Shown here piece by piece: positions 5,580 through 16,256 of a stretch of DNA of 29,930 nt. This stretch comes from Thermoplasmata archaeon (GTDB lineage: Archaea; Thermoplasmatota; E2; DHVEG-1). Numbering within the stretch: position 1 is the stretch's first letter; the number at the start of each line of letters is the position of its first letter. Made by a program: the position numbers and the translations under genes. The stretch is taken from contig QMTB01000001.1 in assembly GCA_003649845.1 (NCBI GenBank), positions 1-29,930 on the forward strand. Reading direction: 5' to 3'. The notes below the pieces were generated by a model. The model had not been told where the DNA came from and made no database searches. It worked only from the letters and a program-made list of their open reading frames with translations.

Positions 5580-6361
5580 ATCTTTGAGTTAAGAATCTTA
5601 TCGATTAGAGATTCACTACATGCAGCTATTATACTTGTTCTTTCATCTAGATTCAAAGGCATATCTATATCATAACCTCTACGGTTTCTTACTATTCCAC
5701 CTGCTTCTCTGAGTATTAAAATAGAAGCAGCTATATCAGTTACTCTTAGATATTCTCTACCCATTATATAGAAATCTATTGCACCTATAGCAACCATACT
5801 CATCTCCAGAGAAGCTGCTCCAAGAGATCTCACATTATTTTTATCTACAAATTGCAAAGCAAGATCATCTACATTTCTACCTAAATTAAGGCTTGATAAG
5901 ATACTATTAGAAGGGTGATCCGGGGTAAAAATCTGTTTATTATTAAAATAGGCTCCCCTTTCCTTTTCAGCTATAAATATATCACCAGTTGGAATATTCA
6001 ATACAATCCCATATTCAACACTATCTAAGGTATCTCTACCGATAGCAAGAGATGTAGCATAGAAGGGTATACCTCTAATAGCATTTCTAGTTCCATCTAT
6101 TGGATCTAACACCAAAGTATATTCTCCATTCATATCTATATACCCTGACTCCTCGCTGAGTAGATTCACCGGAATCTTAGATTTCCTAATATATCTAATA
6201 GCTACATCCTCTGCTATCTTATCTATATATTCTGTTGGTGTTCCATCTGCGCCGATACCAATATTTCTTCCTAGGTTGATATCCTGTGACTGTAAACTTC
6301 TAATCTTCCTGGAAATACTCTTCGTTATCCTCAAAGCTAATTCTTTAATCTCTAAATTCAT
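5576..6361 (-). CDS. Inositol monophosphatase/FBPase-family (FIG superfamily) phosphatase, possibly NADP phosphatase-like
   Basis: GADGTPT..IDK.AE, LLSEESG, VLDPIDGTRNA, RSLGAASLE, DIAAS..ILREAGG. Confidence 0.9.
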   Translation of the reverse strand: MNLEIKELALRITKSISRKIRSLQSQDINLGRNIGIGADGTPTEYIDKIAEDVAIRYIRKSKIPVNLLSEESGYIDMNGEYTLVLDPIDGTRNAIRGIPFYATSLAIGRDTLDSVEYGIVLNIPTGDIFIAEKERGAYFNNKQIFTPDHPSNSILSSLNLGRNVDDLALQFVDKNNVRSLGAASLEMSMVAIGAIDFYIMGREYLRVTDIAASILILREAGGIVRNRRGYDIDMPLNLDERTSIIAACSESLIDKILNSKI

Positions 6362-7232
6362 CTTTTCTATCCATCCATATATATTCTACTCCAAATACCA
6401 TTAGAATACCTATAATTATAAATAAAGCCATGGATATTGAAAAGGGATATATTATTAATTTATCTATAGGTCTTTTTAATCCACCGATCATGATTCCTAT
6501 TAGAAAGGATAGAGTAACAAACCTATATTTCTTTATAAGGAAGGAGAGCAGATGAGAGAAAGATAGTATACCTATAACCGCTCCTATGAGATAAGCAAAT
6601 ATCGGTGGGAGATAAAAAACCCTCACAGCATTCAACATATAACTATATTGCCCTAATAGCAACATTATAAAAGCACCTGATATACCTGGAAGAATCATAG
6701 CGCATATGGAGATAATACCAGACACAAATATTATAGGTAAAGAATGATCTAACTGTATTTTAGATAAACTTAGGAAAAGATAAGAAGATAGAAAACCTAG
6801 AAATAAAGATATTAGATAAACTATTCTTTTCTCCTCCAGTCTAATATACAACACTATAGCGGAGGATAATATAAGTCCTAGGAAAAAGGAGTATACATAG
6901 ATACTATAGTTAGAGAGCAAGAAATGTATAATCTGTGCTAATACTAGAAAAGCTGTTCCTATCCCAAAAATTAGAGGCAATAGAAAATAAAAATCTATTG
7001 AATATATAGACTGCTTTACTCTATCAATATACCTCCTATCTGATATAGATAATATAAGATATAGAGGTATCTTTGGATCTATAGATTTGATAGCAAAAAC
7101 CAATTTATCATAGATACCTGTGATGAGAGCAATAGTTCCACCGGATATACCTGGTATAATATCAGCACTTCCCATAAGTAAACCTTTTAAAAAAAATATT
7201 AAAAGATGGCCTTTCTTAGCACTTCTAGACAT
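6345..7232 (-). CDS. DUF368-family membrane protein (putative polyprenyl-phosphate transporter)
   Basis: KGLLMGSADIIPGISGGTIALITGIYDKLV and a second repeat AMILPGISGAFIMLLLGQY; multiple hydrophobic segments. Confidence 0.92.
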   Translation of the reverse strand: MSRSAKKGHLLIFFLKGLLMGSADIIPGISGGTIALITGIYDKLVFAIKSIDPKIPLYLILSISDRRYIDRVKQSIYSIDFYFLLPLIFGIGTAFLVLAQIIHFLLSNYSIYVYSFFLGLILSSAIVLYIRLEEKRIVYLISLFLGFLSSYLFLSLSKIQLDHSLPIIFVSGIISICAMILPGISGAFIMLLLGQYSYMLNAVRVFYLPPIFAYLIGAVIGILSFSHLLSFLIKKYRFVTLSFLIGIMIGGLKRPIDKLIIYPFSISMALFIIIGILMVFGVEYIWMDRKDEFRD

Positions 7233-9207: not shown

Positions 9208-12200
9208 TTATTCTTCTCTTGCCAACAGTATATCAAAGGTTTTTACACCCTCCCCAACATTGACAATTAGATGTCCACTATAAGTATAGGTAACAATTTG
9301 ACCACTTACATTTACAGGTTGGCTAACAGAAACATTATATGTACCAGGTCTAAGTAATACACTATAGTAACCTGTTTCATCTGATCTAGCAGAGGAAAAT
9401 CTAGCGGTATTATTTGCGATAGAGCGATCAGGTGCAAATGCAATAGATACATTATATATTGGTATCATATCTTCTTGATCAATAGTTTGACCACTCACAT
9501 TTACAGGTATATAATCAATTGATACGTTTACTAATTTGGTCTTATTAGATTCAATAGTTACATTTTCTACACCAAAGTATCCAGGTAGTTTTGTAACATT
9601 AATCTGATAATCGCCTGGGGTGAGAGATCTAAAGGAATATCTACCTGTAGCATTTGTCACTAGAGAATCAACAAATTTATCAGTTGGAGTAGTTGTATAT
9701 ATAAGATTAACAGTTGCACCTTCTACTTCTTCACCAGCATCATATTCTCCATTATCATTCTTATCAAAGTATATTATACCAGATACATTACCTGGCTTTG
9801 GAAGTACTACATCATGGGTTGTGTTGCCCTCCGGCACCTTTATAAGTGTGTTCTCAATTTGGAAGCCATCAGGAGTTAAAACAGCTATCTGATATATACC
9901 TGGTAGTAAACCGGAGATGGTATAAGAACCATTTATATCCGTTCTAACATCTCGTATCATATTATAATCATATGTCTCTACTTGTCCTGTTTGGTTATCA
10001 AATGAGTTTATACCTCTAACTGCAACCTGTGCATTTGCAAGAGGTTGATCAACAGATGCATTATAACCACTCTCATTTCCCTTCTCATCATATACATAGC
10101 CTTTTATTGTCCCAGGTTTAATTTCAATTGTAATGAAACGAGTATTGTTATCAGTATTGCGCATAGCTTCATCTTCTGTTATAGGTGCTAGAGACGTATC
10201 ATTTTTGCTATTAAACGTTACATTAGTTACAGCAAAAGCATTGACACCGAGTTCAGGATAACGACGGACTTGTATACTTATATTACCAGCAGGCGCTATA
10301 ACATGGAATGAACCATTTACAGCTAAATCTCTATCATGATCAATTGGAATCTCTCCACCATAGAGAGATACATTCTTTCGAACTACAACTTGTAGATTCT
10401 GAGGTTTACCATCAAATAAAATAGTTCCATTGATATAGGCACCTTCATAGTATTTAGCGATAACTACAGCGGTTTTACCAGGGTTACCTTGGTAATATAT
10501 ATATTTTGGATATGGAGAAACATACTCTGCATAGAAATGGCGCATATTAAGACAGGGAATCTGATAATCTGGTTCAGTTTTTACTTTACCTCCACCAACG
10601 CCAGAGGATTTCTCAGTTGCAGGACCAATGTATGTTTTATAGAACATCGTATTGAAATATGCATCTTTATAGACTGTTTTTGTCTGTACAACTGGATCGG
10701 ATCTACTCTCAGCAACTGTCCTATCCTTCCATTCATCATATGTTAATTCTCTGCCACTCTGGGTAACAAATTTAATTTGAATAAAATCATCTTCAGGTAC
10801 ATCACCTTCTCTCATGGCAAGTAGAACTAAACTTTTATCTGCCAAGAAAGAGAAGATATTGAATATCTGTTTATCATATCCTTCAACACCATAGTATCTA
10901 ATACTTTTACCCGTTACCTTTTGTAGGTCATGATATAGCCAGGTTATATCCTCATCGTCTAATTTATTAGTTAGAAGAGCAGAGGCATCATGATAGACAG
11001 CATTCATAGGCCATTGTTCTCCAACTGGATGATCTTTAGCGATCTTATGATCATATGCAAGGGCGATAGGACGCCCATATGAGGGGGATTCCTCTGGATT
11101 CTCAACCCATTGAATAATCTTACTGCTATCGTTTTTCCCGAGGTGATCCTCTAAAACATTTTTAACAGACTCTGTGAGTTTACCATCATTATGGAAAACA
11201 TCTCCTTCAAGTAATCTAATTATCCATATGGAAACAGCTTCTTTCTCACTCGTAGCTGTATGAAAGTTTGCAGCAGGTGGTATACCATCTTGAAAGTTAT
11301 CAGCAACCGTAGGATGCCCACCTACAGCAACCTCATAAAATCCATAATCCCACCAGGAGATAAAGGCAGGTCTCTCAGCAGGATCTTCTATATCAGTATC
11401 CTGTGAAGCAAGCCATGTGTAGGCATCTACCCAATAACCCTCTTTACCGAGACCAGTAAAGAAAGCACCATTAGGTAGATCACCAAAGACCTTTTTCTTC
11501 TCTGTGAAAGGCACAGCAGCATCTAATGAAAGATAAGCATTTGGCAAGATAATAATCAAAGCTATGAGAAGTATTCCAAATATATGCATGAATTTAACCC
11601 CTCTCTTTAGACCATGTAAACCACCGCCAACGTTGCGTATAACTTTAACCATTTCAGGATAATTGATCTTATCAACTACATACCATGTGAAGTAGCTGCT
11701 AAATAATGCAACTAATGGGACTAAATCATTTAGGAAACGACCTGCACTAGCAGATAACCACATTTCTATAAAGAAAACAACTATCAGCAGGAGATGATCC
11801 CTACGTTGATTATATCTTATAAATCTATAAGCTATCAACAGGAAACCAGCCCAAGCAATCCAATATAATGCTGGACCAAAGGACATCACCGTTCTACTTA
11901 TACCATATACATTAGCCTCTGCGATAGTTTGAGATACTTTCTTACCATAAACTCCACCGCCATATATAATAGTCCATATATCCTTAAGGTGAGCAAGAGG
12001 AGGGAATATATCTGAGAGAACTGGTATAAAGTAAAGGAATATTAGTCCTGCTACAATAACAAGTAGGATAATAGGTACAGATAAAGTCCAAGGAATTCTC
12101 TTTCTATTTAGAATATAACATATAATTCCTAAGATAATTACTCCGGTAATTGTTAACAGAGGGGTATTAAAAACTATGCCATGTTTGGCAGATATCACTG

Positions 12201-13074
12201 GGAGAGAAATAATATAACCTGTAAATAAAACAAGGAATGAAGAAGTTGCAACCTTTAAATCAATTTTACTTCGATAGATGTCAACAAATATCTGAATTAT
12301 CGTGTAAGCAAATATAACTACGTATAAAAATTTAGCTTCAACCCAAACCATAGATAAACCTGCAAGGGGCATGCCCCCTAAAAGGGCATATAATCTGGAT
12401 TTTGTTTTATCAGATTCCTTTAAACTTTTTATAAGAAAAGCATAAGTTAAGAAGAAAAGGAGGAGGTTGAGAGAATCATGATCAAATAAAGTATATGCAG
12501 AACCATGACCGGAGCCTAGATGAATTGGAATTAAAGGTATAAATAGAGCAGCTAGGAGGCCTTCTTTTCTACCGAAAACAGTCCTTCCAATAACATATAT
12601 TGGGAAAACTATAAGCGCTCCAAATAAAGCAGGTATAAACTGCATAGAATAACCTATTGCATCAACCTCGCTCATAAAAGGAGTAAGGAACCTAGCAAAA
12701 GCTATAGCAAGCATATTCATAAGTGGAGCTCTACCGCCACTCCTTCCAAGAGGATAATTCAGTAGGGGATCATTATACGAATAATAGGGGTAATGTCCAG
12801 GGTTTTCACCATATAATGTTTCCTTAATTAATCTCATATTATAATATGGATCTGGACCGGATAGATAATATTTGGAAAAACCTTCACCAGTAGGATTAAA
12901 TGGTTCTCCACTTGTTACATTGAAATACGAGTTTAGAAATAAAACTAATAGGAAAATTGCAACTAGAGATAGAGCAATCCACCAGTTTTTAGGTAAAAAG
13001 CTTTTTAATGATTTAGCCTCTGTTGTTTTAGCAGATTCAGTTGATTTGGTTTTTTTCACTGCTCTTTTCCGCAT
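9208..13074 (-). CDS. aglB: Oligosaccharyltransferase AglB (STT3 family), long form with C-terminal carboxypeptidase-regulatory-like/SdrD-B-like beta-sandwich repeats
   Basis: About 13 TM segments; GPDPYY, FDHD, TIAE, WWDYG (11341-11355), ADNFQ. Start set at ATG 13074, preceded by AGGTGA, with a TTTATAAG box at 13122-13115. Confidence 0.95.
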   Translation of the reverse strand: MRKRAVKKTKSTESAKTTEAKSLKSFLPKNWWIALSLVAIFLLVLFLNSYFNVTSGEPFNPTGEGFSKYYLSGPDPYYNMRLIKETLYGENPGHYPYYSYNDPLLNYPLGRSGGRAPLMNMLAIAFARFLTPFMSEVDAIGYSMQFIPALFGALIVFPIYVIGRTVFGRKEGLLAALFIPLIPIHLGSGHGSAYTLFDHDSLNLLLFFLTYAFLIKSLKESDKTKSRLYALLGGMPLAGLSMVWVEAKFLYVVIFAYTIIQIFVDIYRSKIDLKVATSSFLVLFTGYIISLPVISAKHGIVFNTPLLTITGVIILGIICYILNRKRIPWTLSVPIILLVIVAGLIFLYFIPVLSDIFPPLAHLKDIWTIIYGGGVYGKKVSQTIAEANVYGISRTVMSFGPALYWIAWAGFLLIAYRFIRYNQRRDHLLLIVVFFIEMWLSASAGRFLNDLVPLVALFSSYFTWYVVDKINYPEMVKVIRNVGGGLHGLKRGVKFMHIFGILLIALIIILPNAYLSLDAAVPFTEKKKVFGDLPNGAFFTGLGKEGYWVDAYTWLASQDTDIEDPAERPAFISWWDYGFYEVAVGGHPTVADNFQDGIPPAANFHTATSEKEAVSIWIIRLLEGDVFHNDGKLTESVKNVLEDHLGKNDSSKIIQWVENPEESPSYGRPIALAYDHKIAKDHPVGEQWPMNAVYHDASALLTNKLDDEDITWLYHDLQKVTGKSIRYYGVEGYDKQIFNIFSFLADKSLVLLAMREGDVPEDDFIQIKFVTQSGRELTYDEWKDRTVAESRSDPVVQTKTVYKDAYFNTMFYKTYIGPATEKSSGVGGGKVKTEPDYQIPCLNMRHFYAEYVSPYPKYIYYQGNPGKTAVVIAKYYEGAYINGTILFDGKPQNLQVVVRKNVSLYGGEIPIDHDRDLAVNGSFHVIAPAGNISIQVRRYPELGVNAFAVTNVTFNSKNDTSLAPITEDEAMRNTDNNTRFITIEIKPGTIKGYVYDEKGNESGYNASVDQPLANAQVAVRGINSFDNQTGQVETYDYNMIRDVRTDINGSYTISGLLPGIYQIAVLTPDGFQIENTLIKVPEGNTTHDVVLPKPGNVSGIIYFDKNDNGEYDAGEEVEGATVNLIYTTTPTDKFVDSLVTNATGRYSFRSLTPGDYQINVTKLPGYFGVENVTIESNKTKLVNVSIDYIPVNVSGQTIDQEDMIPIYNVSIAFAPDRSIANNTARFSSARSDETGYYSVLLRPGTYNVSVSQPVNVSGQIVTYTYSGHLIVNVGEGVKTFDILLAREE

Positions 13075-13112
13075 TATTCTCACCTTATCTTGATTCACAC
13101 TTGTAAAAAGAT

Positions 13113-13127
13113 GGTCTTATAAATACC
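13113..13127 (-). promoter_or_regulatory. Putative TATA box of aglB
   Basis: Minus strand GTATTTATAAGAC immediately after the prs stop; its spacing places GTG 13098 at or before the expected transcription start. Confidence 0.5.
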
Positions 13128-13985
13128 TTACTTACCTTTTAGCATCTCTGCTAACAGTGGAGCAACCTTAACTTTGCTAAAAGGATTAGGTATTGTGTCT
13201 GTTGTAACTATCTCATCACATCCAGCGTTTCTTATTTTTTCAATGGCATTACCTGCAAAAACACCATGGATGCAGGCTGCAATAGCTTTCTCTGCCCCCT
13301 GTCTTTTAAGTTCCTCTATAGAGGAAGCTATGGTTCCACCTGTAGAAATGATATCATCTACTATAGCTATATTTTTCCCATTTACATCGAGTTTCTTAGG
13401 AGTAACTTCTATAGTTATCCCATCTATACGAGTCTTCTCTAGATAGTCTACTTCACATTTTAGGATATCTGCAGCTACTTCTGCTCGTTTCAATGCACCT
13501 TTATCTGGTGCAAGAACCATATCTATGTTTTTATCTTTGAGATAATCAGCTATCAATGGAATCGCTGAAGATACCTTACAAGGTATACCAAAGAAATCAG
13601 AAATATATTCTTTATGAGGATCGATTGTAACAACGTCATCTGCGTCTATACTAATTATCCTAGCAATAGCCTTAGCGCTTATTGGTTCACCTTCATTGAA
13701 TTTTCTATCCTGTCTTGCATATCCCATATATGGGATAACAGCCGTTATATTATCTGCATTAGCCTCTCTAGCAGCATTTAGAATTAGAAGCAATTCGATA
13801 ATACTTTCATCTGGATATGCTGTTTGTATAACTACTATTCTATGCCCCTTTATTTCCTCTGGAATTCGTAAGTATAACTCTCCATCTGGAAATCTCTTAC
13901 TCACTAAATCTATCAAGGGCATTTTGAGGAGTTTTGATAAATCCTCTGCAATTGATTTTGATCTACTCCCGCCGATTATCATCAT
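13128..13985 (-). CDS. prs: Ribose-phosphate pyrophosphokinase (archaeal type)
   Basis: RFPDGELYLR, PYMGYARQDR, GEPISA, LAPDKGAL, PRPP-binding IVDDIISTGGT, HGVF, TDTI. ATG 13985 preferred over GTG 13997. Confidence 0.96.
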   Translation of the reverse strand: MMIIGGSRSKSIAEDLSKLLKMPLIDLVSKRFPDGELYLRIPEEIKGHRIVVIQTAYPDESIIELLLILNAAREANADNITAVIPYMGYARQDRKFNEGEPISAKAIARIISIDADDVVTIDPHKEYISDFFGIPCKVSSAIPLIADYLKDKNIDMVLAPDKGALKRAEVAADILKCEVDYLEKTRIDGITIEVTPKKLDVNGKNIAIVDDIISTGGTIASSIEELKRQGAEKAIAACIHGVFAGNAIEKIRNAGCDEIVTTDTIPNPFSKVKVAPLLAEMLKGK

Positions 13986-14058: not shown

Positions 14059-14096
14059 CAGTTGGCTATAGTTCTTCTATTCTGGATGTGGATGTG

Positions 14097-16256
14097 ATGT
14101 ATATAAAATGGTGGCTAATAATAGCAAGCATAATTTGTTTTACAATTCTTCTTACAATCCCCTCTTTTGGAGAGGAAACAAGCAGTATCTCTGCAGATAT
14201 AAATATAGATGTTTCAACAGGAACAAATTTTACAACATATATAGATATGAAAGTGGAAAAGATATATCTATCTGCAAGTGAATTAACCTATACAGCTGAG
14301 GAGATAGCAGATCTTGCAAATAATAATCCAGAGATACTCGGTGCTATAAAATATGCTCTCAAGGATTTTATTTTAAATCAGCTTAGAGAGAGTTTTAAAG
14401 AAGCGAAGATAACGCCTCTAAAAGAACTACCTACATATGAAGACAATCTTTTCCATGATGAATATAAAATAGATTTAACGCCTAAATTTTTTAGTCTAAA
14501 TGATTCCATCGATATATATAATCTTATAAACGGTTTACTTAACATTGGAGGGATAGTAAATTATTCTTTTCCATTACATGCAGAGGAGGGTTGGAAAAAC
14601 ATCTATAAATTCATATTACCTACTCATCTAACATTTAAAAGAACAACGGGACTAGTTAAAAACAATGAGATAACATGGATCGTAGATAATAAAGATGGAT
14701 TGATAAATCTTAGAAAGGCAGAACTATCACTTATGTCTAAAAAATCAAATGAATTGAATAAAAATGAAGATGTTTTGATGGTAAATTTTATTTTAAATGC
14801 AACAAAACCAGAGAAGATTGGGTTAACCTCAGAGATGCTAATAAAAAACCTTGGGTTAAAAAACTATAGGATATCACCCGATTTCATATACAATATCTCT
14901 GGATTACCCGCAGATGGTATAAGATTGTGTGCAAAAAATGGTCTTTTACATTGGGATACAATCTATGAGAGAACATTATCATCTCAGATATATAGAATTA
15001 AAAAAGTCTTGGAAAATTCTTCTCTAAATCAATCGATAGAGTTGAACTTCTCATGGGATCCATCCACTACAACAGATTGTAAAAATCCATATAATGTCTC
15101 TCATATGGATGAAACACCACCTGTTAAAGGTATTTTAAGAGATGAAGAAATCAATCTAACTATACATAGATTACCCGCAAGAGCAGTATTTGGATTGGTT
15201 AATGCTGGAGCGAAAGTAAACCTAAATAATATGGATATAAATTTTGGGGATCATCTAGGAGATATAAAATTACCTTACAATTGTACATTCATTCTACCAG
15301 ATCATATTTTCATCAATGGAGAGAATCCATATAGATGGAATGAAAATCACTCCCTTAATGGAGAGATGTACTCAGATATAGCCCCTATATATAGTGAAGA
15401 AAAAATAGATACTCATATAGATTTCTCAATAGAAGATATGGATCTCAATCTACTGAGTTTCTTCTCAGGTAGAACAGAGATTTCAACTGGATTGTATCTT
15501 GAAGAGAAAGAAAATCGAAGTGTATCGAAGATTCCATATACATTTCATATACCAAGCGAGATAAATATATCTCTTCTAAATTCTGATGCTTTTAGAATAT
15601 GCATAGAAGAAGGAGTATTTAAGGAAAATGAGGTTAAAACATTTTTAAATGATGAAGCAAGTTTATTTAAAATTCTGATAGAAGAGATACTACCTGGTGC
15701 AGATATAAACGTTAAATCAAATGTAGATAAATTTCAGGAATCGTTGAAATGGGATGAAGATATCTCTATTATGGATGGAAATAAGCCCATAAGTATTATT
15801 TCAACCTCTCATGTAACATATCCCCTCTCGTTTAACTTCTCAATTATACCTCCTTCTTTTAAAGTTTTACCATGGAATCTAACCCTAAGAGGCATCAGAG
15901 ATCAAAACGTTACATATAGATTGATATTCCCAGATGGAATATATGTAATGGCTAATGATTCTCTAGGCAAAACATCTACAAAGAAAATTGGAAATCATTA
16001 TCTAATTGAGATTAATTTCAACAAAGAAGAAGCAAACTCCACAGATTACATCTCTATCAAAATGCAACCTTCCTTATTATTTATAATAGGCTTATTTTCA
16101 CCTTGTCTATTAAGTATAATAGTAGCCTCTATATTGTTTATACTAATATACATTCTAAGGAGGAAGAGGAGAAGAATATATCCCTCTCAAGAACAACAAA
16201 GATACGAAGAGCAGGAGTATTATATACCTCCACCTCCTCAGAATCTAAATAGATAG
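14097..16256 (+). CDS. Hypothetical secreted, C-terminally membrane-anchored surface glycoprotein with about 3 internal repeats
   Basis: N-terminal signal peptide (KWWLIIASIICFTILLTIPSFG), 19 N-X-S/T sequons, C-terminal TM followed by RRKRRR and a Q/E/Y/P-rich tail. GTG 14088 is an alternative start. Confidence 0.8.
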   Translation: MYIKWWLIIASIICFTILLTIPSFGEETSSISADINIDVSTGTNFTTYIDMKVEKIYLSASELTYTAEEIADLANNNPEILGAIKYALKDFILNQLRESFKEAKITPLKELPTYEDNLFHDEYKIDLTPKFFSLNDSIDIYNLINGLLNIGGIVNYSFPLHAEEGWKNIYKFILPTHLTFKRTTGLVKNNEITWIVDNKDGLINLRKAELSLMSKKSNELNKNEDVLMVNFILNATKPEKIGLTSEMLIKNLGLKNYRISPDFIYNISGLPADGIRLCAKNGLLHWDTIYERTLSSQIYRIKKVLENSSLNQSIELNFSWDPSTTTDCKNPYNVSHMDETPPVKGILRDEEINLTIHRLPARAVFGLVNAGAKVNLNNMDINFGDHLGDIKLPYNCTFILPDHIFINGENPYRWNENHSLNGEMYSDIAPIYSEEKIDTHIDFSIEDMDLNLLSFFSGRTEISTGLYLEEKENRSVSKIPYTFHIPSEINISLLNSDAFRICIEEGVFKENEVKTFLNDEASLFKILIEEILPGADINVKSNVDKFQESLKWDEDISIMDGNKPISIISTSHVTYPLSFNFSIIPPSFKVLPWNLTLRGIRDQNVTYRLIFPDGIYVMANDSLGKTSTKKIGNHYLIEINFNKEEANSTDYISIKMQPSLLFIIGLFSPCLLSIIVASILFILIYILRRKRRRIYPSQEQQRYEEQEYYIPPPPQNLNR

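Follow-up and report, generated by a model that had tools for sequence, protein, structure and literature searches.

Introduction

The archaeal oligosaccharyltransferase (OST) AglB is regarded as a single-subunit enzyme, the C-terminal part of which forms a compact globule made up of the units CC, IS, P1, and P2. In AfAglB-L of Archaeoglobus fulgidus the units run in the order TM-CC-IS-P1 (TM, transmembrane), with P1 being designated the "peripheral" unit (PMC3703281), and the polypeptide ends after P1, at 868 aa. The subject of this report is an AglB gene of Thermoplasmata archaeon, an uncultured organism of sediments (assembly GCA_003649845.1, contig QMTB01000001.1), which lies in a stretch of 29,930 nucleotides that is referred to below, at its full length, as the window. 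The predicted product shares with AfAglB-L (3WAJ/3WAK/5GMY/7E9S) the 13-TM-type STT3 architecture, the WWDYG motif, and a CC/IS globule followed by a beta-rich P1, but it adds about 300 aa, folded as three further domains, and its four C-terminal domains (D1–D4) together hold 23 N-glycosylation sequons, a sequon being counted here as N-X-S/T in which X is not Pro.

The added domains resemble those of several described proteins. One of them, D3, is similar in fold to the B repeats of the staphylococcal Sdr and UafA proteins and to the CnaB pilin domains (Z ~11, rmsd (root-mean-square deviation) ~2 Å, 25–30% identity), and it shares with the Sdr/UafA repeats the tandem head-to-tail layout and a DxNxNGxxD loop at the matching place in the domain; the window tail differs from these in being archaeal, in having an enzyme, and not a ligand-binding A domain, as its fusion partner, in having no cell-wall sorting signal, and in being heavily laden with sequons. 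The regulatory domain of carboxypeptidases D/N/M (CarboxypepD_reg) has the same fold (5aq0, 1qmu) and likewise stands at the C-terminus, after an extracellular enzyme domain, whereas the window AglB carries three tandem copies on an unrelated enzyme. SlaB, the S-layer stalk of Sulfolobus acidocaldarius (8QOX), also consists of a row of three beta-sandwich domains leading away from the membrane, and these are N-glycosylated in SlaB (PMC10903991), but SlaB has a C-terminal TM segment and a coiled coil of its own, binds SlaA, and superposes poorly on the window tail (rmsd 19.9). Neither the enzyme family nor the domain families are new; what is new is the short, unanchored AglB fusion: that a phylum fuses AglB to an array of domains rich in glycosylation sites is not discussed in the literature searched, in which, subscription papers lying outside the search, we found no description of such AglB tails.

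Domain Organization of the AglB Tail

The tail of the window AglB is best described, on the evidence of predicted structures and profile comparisons, as one P1 unit (D1) followed by three added domains (D2–D4) that are homologous to one another, the limits of which are collected in Table 1. An AlphaFold2 model of residues 530–1296, built on 59 homologues (mean pLDDT 88.6, pTM 0.76), displays a mixed alpha/beta part and then four all-beta domains. Its top match in VIA-align is AfAglB-L (3waj; Z 17.9, 268 residues aligned, rmsd 4.4), and the alignment spans positions 20–462 of the model and 496–868 of the chain. AfAglB-L ends at 868, and position 462 of the model corresponds to residue 991 of the protein, in the last strand and thus at the end of D1; yeast OST (6c26_A) also matches the model, at Z 10.1, through the C-terminal globular CC fold. 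A separate AlphaFold2 model that isolates D1 (residues 826–996) has a pLDDT of 81.8, and its best PDB matches are again to AfAglB-L (residues 635/662–868, Z 9.2/8.7, 123–137 residues aligned), with transthyretins next at Z ~7. Because D1 aligns in this way, at moderate strength, with the C-terminus of AfAglB-L, we take it to be the equivalent of P1, the peripheral unit of AglB-L, and not an addition, and its conservation (55%), which is near that of the catalytic globule (59%; 38–46% in D2–D4), fits its belonging to the enzyme proper.

The mutual relations of the domains point the same way. In hhalign comparisons, D2 and D3 are related with a probability of 98.9%, D2 and D4 with 96.5%, and D3 and D4 with 94.1%, whereas D1 reaches less than 2% against any of D2–D4 (E 0.03–0.26) and shares with them, weakly (Z ~7), a transthyretin-like fold, so that D1 was rejected as a fourth copy of the repeat. 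The first-pass annotation, made from the letters of the DNA, had read the tail as four extra beta-sandwich repeats; the four sandwiches are borne out by the model, and the tail does model as an array of such domains, but one of the four belongs with the enzyme, and mutual homology is detected among the other three. The Pfam families CarboxypepD_reg (PF13620; 69.5 bits against a gathering threshold of 32.3, in three stretches, one of them at 1121–1193) and SdrD_B (PF17210; 68.6 bits against 29.7, in two stretches, one at 1108–1175), both of which had been suggested in advance for this region, match above threshold, and SpaA is found as well (31.8 bits, cut-off 23.1) in the last third of AglB. 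Taken singly, D3 and D4 match individual transthyretin-like domains at Z 10.6–11.2 and rmsd 1.7–2.3 Å: D3 matches the UafA B domain (3irp, Z 11.2, 30% identity), SdrD (4jdz, Z 10.9; 8vdk, Z 11.1), CnaB2, and carboxypeptidase D (1qmu, Z 11.1, rmsd ~2 Å), and D4 matches the transthyretin-like domain of human carboxypeptidase D (5aq0, Z 11.2, rmsd 1.7). The single-domain match of D2 is weaker (4eiu, Z 9.7), and as an array D2–D4 match pilins, the Bacillus anthracis TIE protein, and the SlaB stalk. Hidden Markov models (HMMs) of D1–D4, run against all open reading frames (ORFs) of the genome, detect one other protein only, C273 (342 aa, E 1e-6), so this repeat subtype is not a common module there; generic CarboxypepD_reg matches occur in two further surface proteins of the genome. 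No C-terminal hydrophobic segment follows the AglB core in the window protein or in eight class relatives, and in the relatives too a conserved D4-type domain closes the protein.

Within D3, inside the SdrD_B match, lies the loop FDKNDNGEYDAGEE (residues 1111–1124, window 9727–9768) with its DxNxNGxxD motif at 1112–1120, which the first-pass annotation had already recognized as SdrD-B-like. Across 59 homologues D1112 is invariant, and conservation reaches at least 90% at each of N1114, N1116, D1120, G1122, E1123, and E1124. In Sdr B repeats, loops of this kind bind Ca2+ and thereby make the repeat rigid, and by analogy the tail is probably stiffened by calcium at D3. The invariant residues of the tail are R980, G1000, G1057, G1107, D1112, G1152, Y1164, Y1174, G1203, and G1252. 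In D2–D4 the invariant positions are structural ones (Gly, Tyr, Asp), and this speaks against both a further active site and a dedicated binding face; since invariant tail residues fall almost entirely on structural Gly, Tyr, Asp, and Pro positions, the tail is unlikely to be another catalytic module or one specific for a ligand.

The enzyme to which this array is joined appears complete. AglB is encoded by a single unbroken ORF on the minus strand, 9208..13098, giving 1296 aa when read from a GTG at 13098; the ATG at M9 is the start used in the database homologues and in an identical database protein (P0002), which gives 9208..13074 and 1288 aa, and by this comparison the start should be annotated at 13074 rather than 13098. 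The eight codons upstream of the ATG of M9, back to the GTG, occupy 13075–13098 of the window, and residue numbers in this report count from the GTG frame of 1296 aa, so that the predicted start is M9. Pfam STT3 (PF02516) matches residues 78–475 with 63.1 bits (cut-off 24.5, E 4e-17), an AglB_core-like family matches weakly at 573–624, and phmmer aligns residues 67–619 with AfAglB-L (3waj; E 5e-16). The catalytic motifs of the family (an acidic residue in the first external loop, DxD, TIXE, and WWDYG) are present as GPDPYY at 81–86, which pairs with GNDPWY of AfAglB-L in the phmmer alignment, FDHD at 205–208, TIAE at 391–394, and WWDYG at 582–586, the last being invariant across 59 homologues. 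The segment YDKQIFNIF at 741–749, as read without a structure-guided alignment, fits exactly neither of the consensus patterns of the kinked helix, DxxKxxx[MI] (the DK motif) and MxxIxxx[IVW] (the MI motif), and D742, I745, I748, and F749 within it are invariant. Judged by these matches the ORF 9208–13098 encodes an intact AglB/STT3 oligosaccharyltransferase (GT66), and it provides the sole STT3 match detected in the 1.72-Mb genome, which is 84% complete. Membership in NCBIfam TIGR04154 (archaeo_STT3, archaeosortase A-associated) was rejected, the score of 198.6 bits lying below the cut-off of 450 and marking the protein as a relative of that family.

Distribution and Conservation of Sequons

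AglB contains 25 sequons, two of them in the earlier part and 23 in its last 414 aa (residues 883–1296), the latter being the very number that had been counted when the tail was first noticed. The contrast within the protein is striking, with 1 sequon in the 348-aa catalytic globule as against 23 in the stalk (7, 5, 6, and 5 in D1 to D4) and the one remaining in the TM domain. In 20,000 composition-keeping shuffles of the tail, the mean was 5.25 sequons, the standard deviation 2.0, and the maximum 15, which places the observed 23 at z 8.7; the reversed motif S/T-X-N occurs 5 times in the tail and D/Q-X-S/T occurs 3 times. The shuffles, together with the ratio of 23 to 5 between the motif and its reverse, establish that the excess is real and directional. 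Sequons account for 62% of the Asn residues in the tail and for 6% of those elsewhere in AglB.

The sites are also conserved to a degree. The tails of the homologues carry 9–27 sequons and their TM parts 0–4, and at 13 of the 23 tail sites a sequon is shared by at least 50% of the 59 aligned homologues, six of these sites (N890, N1013, N1185, N1191, N1229, and N1255) being conserved in at least 83%. Sequon Asn residues of the tail are retained at 55% compared with 36% for other tail Asn residues, and the Ser/Thr at +2 at 64% compared with 46%. In the catalytic globule the lone sequon, N656, recurs in 86% of the homologues. Around it, at window ~11120–11140 (residues 654–660), the family consensus LGxNxTxNITxW forms a double sequon, the second site of which is lost in the window protein and kept in 47% of the homologues. 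A double-sequon motif with an essential N-glycan has been reported for eukaryotic STT3, and the N656 region of AglB recalls that motif.

The first-pass annotation had named, as a point that would tell against its reading, a sequon density no higher than that of other exported proteins of the genome, and such a match is seen in part. By crude rules for ORFs and hydropathy, from which the gene calls and a "secreted" class were derived, the number of sequons per 100 aa is 0.49 in cytoplasmic proteins, 1.26 in signal- or anchor-bearing proteins, and 5.56 in the AglB tail, the last being 4.4 times the mean of the "secreted" class. When 388 large proteins of the genome are ranked by their best 414-aa segment, however, the AglB tail (23) comes fourth, after a PQQ-propeller/PKD/Big protein (28), a DUF4785-domain protein (27), and a CARDB protein (25), and it is level with a NosD/PKD protein and a dockerin-bearing protein (22 each). 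Because its density thus equals that of the most sequon-rich surface proteins, it is a general trait of the exposed beta-sandwich domains of this organism and not special to AglB. The fusion is real, conserved, and undescribed in the literature searched, and it represents a case of domain accretion with a sequon density typical of the surface proteins of the organism.

Reality and Spread of the Fusion

Comparison with other genomes shows that the fusion of AglB to its tail is genuine and is kept throughout a class of Thermoplasmatota. At least 120 homologues are listed, of 1138–1412 aa (most of them 1256–1412) and 49–86% identity, nearly all of which cover 99% of the query and have the same Pfam architecture as the window AglB. 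The relatives come from metagenome-assembled genomes of uncultured Thermoplasmata and Thermoplasmatota from sediments, the Guaymas Basin, and estuaries, SM1-50 and UBA202 among them, a lineage that we take to be Marine Benthic Group D (GTDB class E2). A survey of AglB length in 301 sampled Thermoplasmatota genomes found a full-length AglB in all 35 of the 35 sampled genomes of the same family (1283–1646 aa), lengths of ~1279–1301 aa in the same order, and lengths of ~1118–1204 aa in the other families of the class, in agreement with the first-pass annotation, which had noted that long AglBs occur in Thermoplasmata. Within the class the domains form a graded series, which runs from D1-D3-D4 (~1165 aa) through D1-D2-D3-D4 (~1285 aa) to forms with one to three additional D4-like domains (1375–1646 aa).

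The reads support the same structure. Among the Logan contigs of the probable source runs, one piece spans 9833–13300, and an independent hydrothermal-vent sample contains an identical 381-nt contig over the junction of core and tail (10210–10590). No RNA run was listed among those containing the sequence. The lone contig break, at ~9832 within the tail, is a single-nucleotide polymorphism (SNP) bubble with overlapping contigs. The polymorphism itself, C>A at 9832, near residue 1089 at the end of D2, is present at ~40% of the depth in the two probable source runs and indicates strain heterogeneity in the sampled population.

Relation to the Giant AglB Proteins

Long AglBs with a different ending are encoded elsewhere in the phylum, and three of them, of 2061, 2081, and 2611 aa from genomes of other classes, were compared with the window protein. 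These giants have in common with it the phylum, the AglB core, and a sequon-rich beta-sandwich array; they contain 40–102 sequons, and each is closed by a TM helix followed by a basic (K/R) tail. In two of the three, a gene for a doubly anchored protein of ~280 aa lies directly downstream, and the two partners are homologous (30% identity, E 2e-16). The partner genes (L011:8225-9070 and L012:2484-3326) encode N- and C-terminal hydrophobic segments and 6–12 sequons. Unlike the giants, with their C-terminal anchor (3/3) and downstream partner (2/3), the window AglB and its class relatives (1118–1645 aa) have neither, and a gene for cytoplasmic AMMECR1 occupies the place downstream that the partner has in the giants; searches of the 84%-complete genome by blastp and tblastn with two giant partners as queries returned nothing better than E 0.05.

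An HMM of D1 recognizes the giant AglBs (E 6e-11 and 7e-7), and D3/D4-like repeats come after D1 there, from which we conclude that the tail of the window AglB is homologous to the membrane-proximal part of the longer rods of the giants. The window AglB shows a minimal, free-ended variant of a phylum-wide design, with three added domains. The existence of the minimal form shows that the fusion can persist without anchor or partner, and its added part of ~300 aa offers an experimentally tractable construct.

Proposed Role of the Tail and Alternatives

We consider it reasonably probable that the tail is a glycan-coated extracellular stalk with a structural role. AglB would be the only N-oligosaccharyltransferase of the cell, with its globule (CC/IS plus the P1-like unit) extended by D2–D4 to a free end without a second anchor. 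The tail would be located outside the cell, given that no further TM segment separates it from the extracellular domain before it. AglB molecules, acting in cis or in trans, would glycosylate the ~23 sequons of the tail: with no further OST gene detected, AglB would, if the sites are used, modify its own kind; the AglB of Haloferax volcanii, which is itself N-glycosylated (PMC8241124), offers a precedent for self-glycosylation of the tail. The conserved loop of D3 would bind Ca2+ and stiffen the array, as in the staphylococcal Sdr B repeats, and the stalk would act as a spacer or as a contributor to a glycocalyx or pseudoperiplasm, protected by its glycans. Several points weigh against this reading: a genome that is 84% complete may hold a second OST, a sequon density common to other surface proteins gives little sign of an AglB-specific function, the tail may fold back on the catalytic domain instead of extending from it, and the class-wide fusion with its expansion to 5–7 domains in some genera suggests more than passive decoration.

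An alternative that we judge unlikely, though with a real chance of being right, is that the tail is a docking or anchoring device which binds a putative S-layer or another envelope protein, such as the 722-aa protein encoded at 14088–16256, and which would either place the OST at the site of surface-protein assembly or tether the envelope to the membrane. The alignment of D2–D4 with the SlaB stalk (8qox_B; Z 11.3 over 229 residues, rmsd 19.9), the divergent synteny of the 722-aa surface protein with prs-aglB in the window and in four relatives of two families, and the strict conservation of the AglB–tail fusion are all consistent with docking, but D2–D4 have no conserved surface patch and no invariant residues other than structural ones, and a domain number that varies from 2 to ~6 in the class suits a spacer better than a specific interface. 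The first-pass annotation had likewise guessed that the tail may anchor the enzyme in a surface layer or recruit substrates. The same paucity of conserved positions bears on a lectin-like function, in which the tail would bind the lipid-linked glycan, the glycosylated product, or an environmental polysaccharide: CarboxypepD_reg and transthyretin-like domains do adjoin carbohydrate-active enzymes, and rhamnogalacturonan lyase (1nkg) and a putative carbohydrate-binding protein (4iyk) are among the structural matches (Z ~9), but these are matches at the level of the fold, no conserved aromatic or polar binding site is present in the 59 homologues, and dense glycosylation of the module would block the binding face, so that we hold such a function to be improbable.

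It is very hard to credit that the sequon excess simply follows from composition or from the periodicity of beta-strands in an AT-rich genome, with sites that go unused, for although Asn makes up as much as 8.9% of the tail and the GC content of the genome is ~34%, 23 sequons stand against 5.3 ± 2.0 in the shuffles, 5 reversed motifs, and 3 D/Q-X-S/T, and the sequon positions are conserved above background; a compositional origin as such was ruled out by the shuffles and the reversed-motif control. That the tail is a gene of its own, fused to aglB through misassembly or a sequencing error, has practically no probability left: the Logan contigs do break at ~9832, inside the tail, but the break is the SNP bubble described above, a contig covers 9833–13300, the independent vent contig crosses 10210–10590, and at least 120 independent assemblies encode the same fusion. 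An assembly error is ruled out by these contigs and homologues, and with it the concern, raised when the tail was first described, that it might be an ORF of its own.

Beyond the structural stalk that we favor, a bolder proposal, which we regard as quite unlikely, is that the stalk, free-ended and self-glycosylated, works as a component of the OST machinery of this class. If it were true, the stalk could be a built-in acceptor and spacer that fixes how far the membrane-bound active site lies from the envelope, or could hand nascent surface proteins to the enzyme, possibly including the syntenic 722-aa glycoprotein, and the giant anchored forms with their partner would be elaborations of the same device. 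Single-subunit OSTs would then have an accessory module, so far unrecognized, with functions comparable to those of the non-catalytic subunits in the eukaryotic OST complex.

Gene Neighborhood

The features of AglB and two neighboring genes are listed in Table 1. Upstream of aglB lies prs (phosphoribosyl pyrophosphate synthetase), and downstream follow, in order, genes for AMMECR1, an amidohydrolase, a VCA0040/DUF368-like translocase, inositol monophosphatase, and geranylgeranylglyceryl phosphate synthase, which by their assignments are typical archaeal housekeeping genes.

Table 1. Location in the window, strand, and basis of assignment of the AglB features and of two neighboring genes
Feature	Position	Strand	Basis and remarks
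aglB gene	9208..13074	-	1288 aa from M9; ORF translation and database homologues
N-terminal polytopic membrane domain, residues 9–529	11512..13074	-	Pfam STT3, phmmer to 3waj; 1 sequon
Extracellular catalytic globule (CC/IS), residues 530–877	10468..11511	-	AlphaFold2 model, 3waj match; sequon N656
WWDYG, residues 582–586	11341-11355	-	within the CC/IS catalytic globule
D1, residues 878–994	10117..10467	-	predicted transthyretin-like beta-sandwich, P1 counterpart; 7 sequons
D2, residues 995–1102	9793..10116	-	predicted first added CarboxypepD_reg/CnaB-like domain; 5 sequons
D3, residues 1103–1198	9505..9792	-	predicted SdrD-B-type domain, DxNxNGxxD loop; 6 sequons
D4, residues 1199–1296	9211..9504	-	predicted terminal transthyretin-like domain; 5 sequons
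VCA0040/DUF368-like gene	6345-7232	-	Pfam E 2e-67
722-aa protein gene	14088-16256	+	19 sequons; no Pfam hit

The 722-aa protein gene, which divergently adjoins prs-aglB in the window and in four relatives of two families, encodes a signal or anchor sequence, a C-terminal TM segment, and a basic/acidic cytoplasmic tail. Its identity to the counterparts in the four relatives is 28–37% (E 1e-19 to 1e-57), and it is a candidate for a major surface glycoprotein or S-layer protein. On the other side, ~2 kb downstream of aglB and on the same strand, the VCA0040/DUF368-like gene encodes a protein of the undecaprenyl-phosphate translocase-like type, which is a possible candidate for a flippase that recycles dolichol phosphate.

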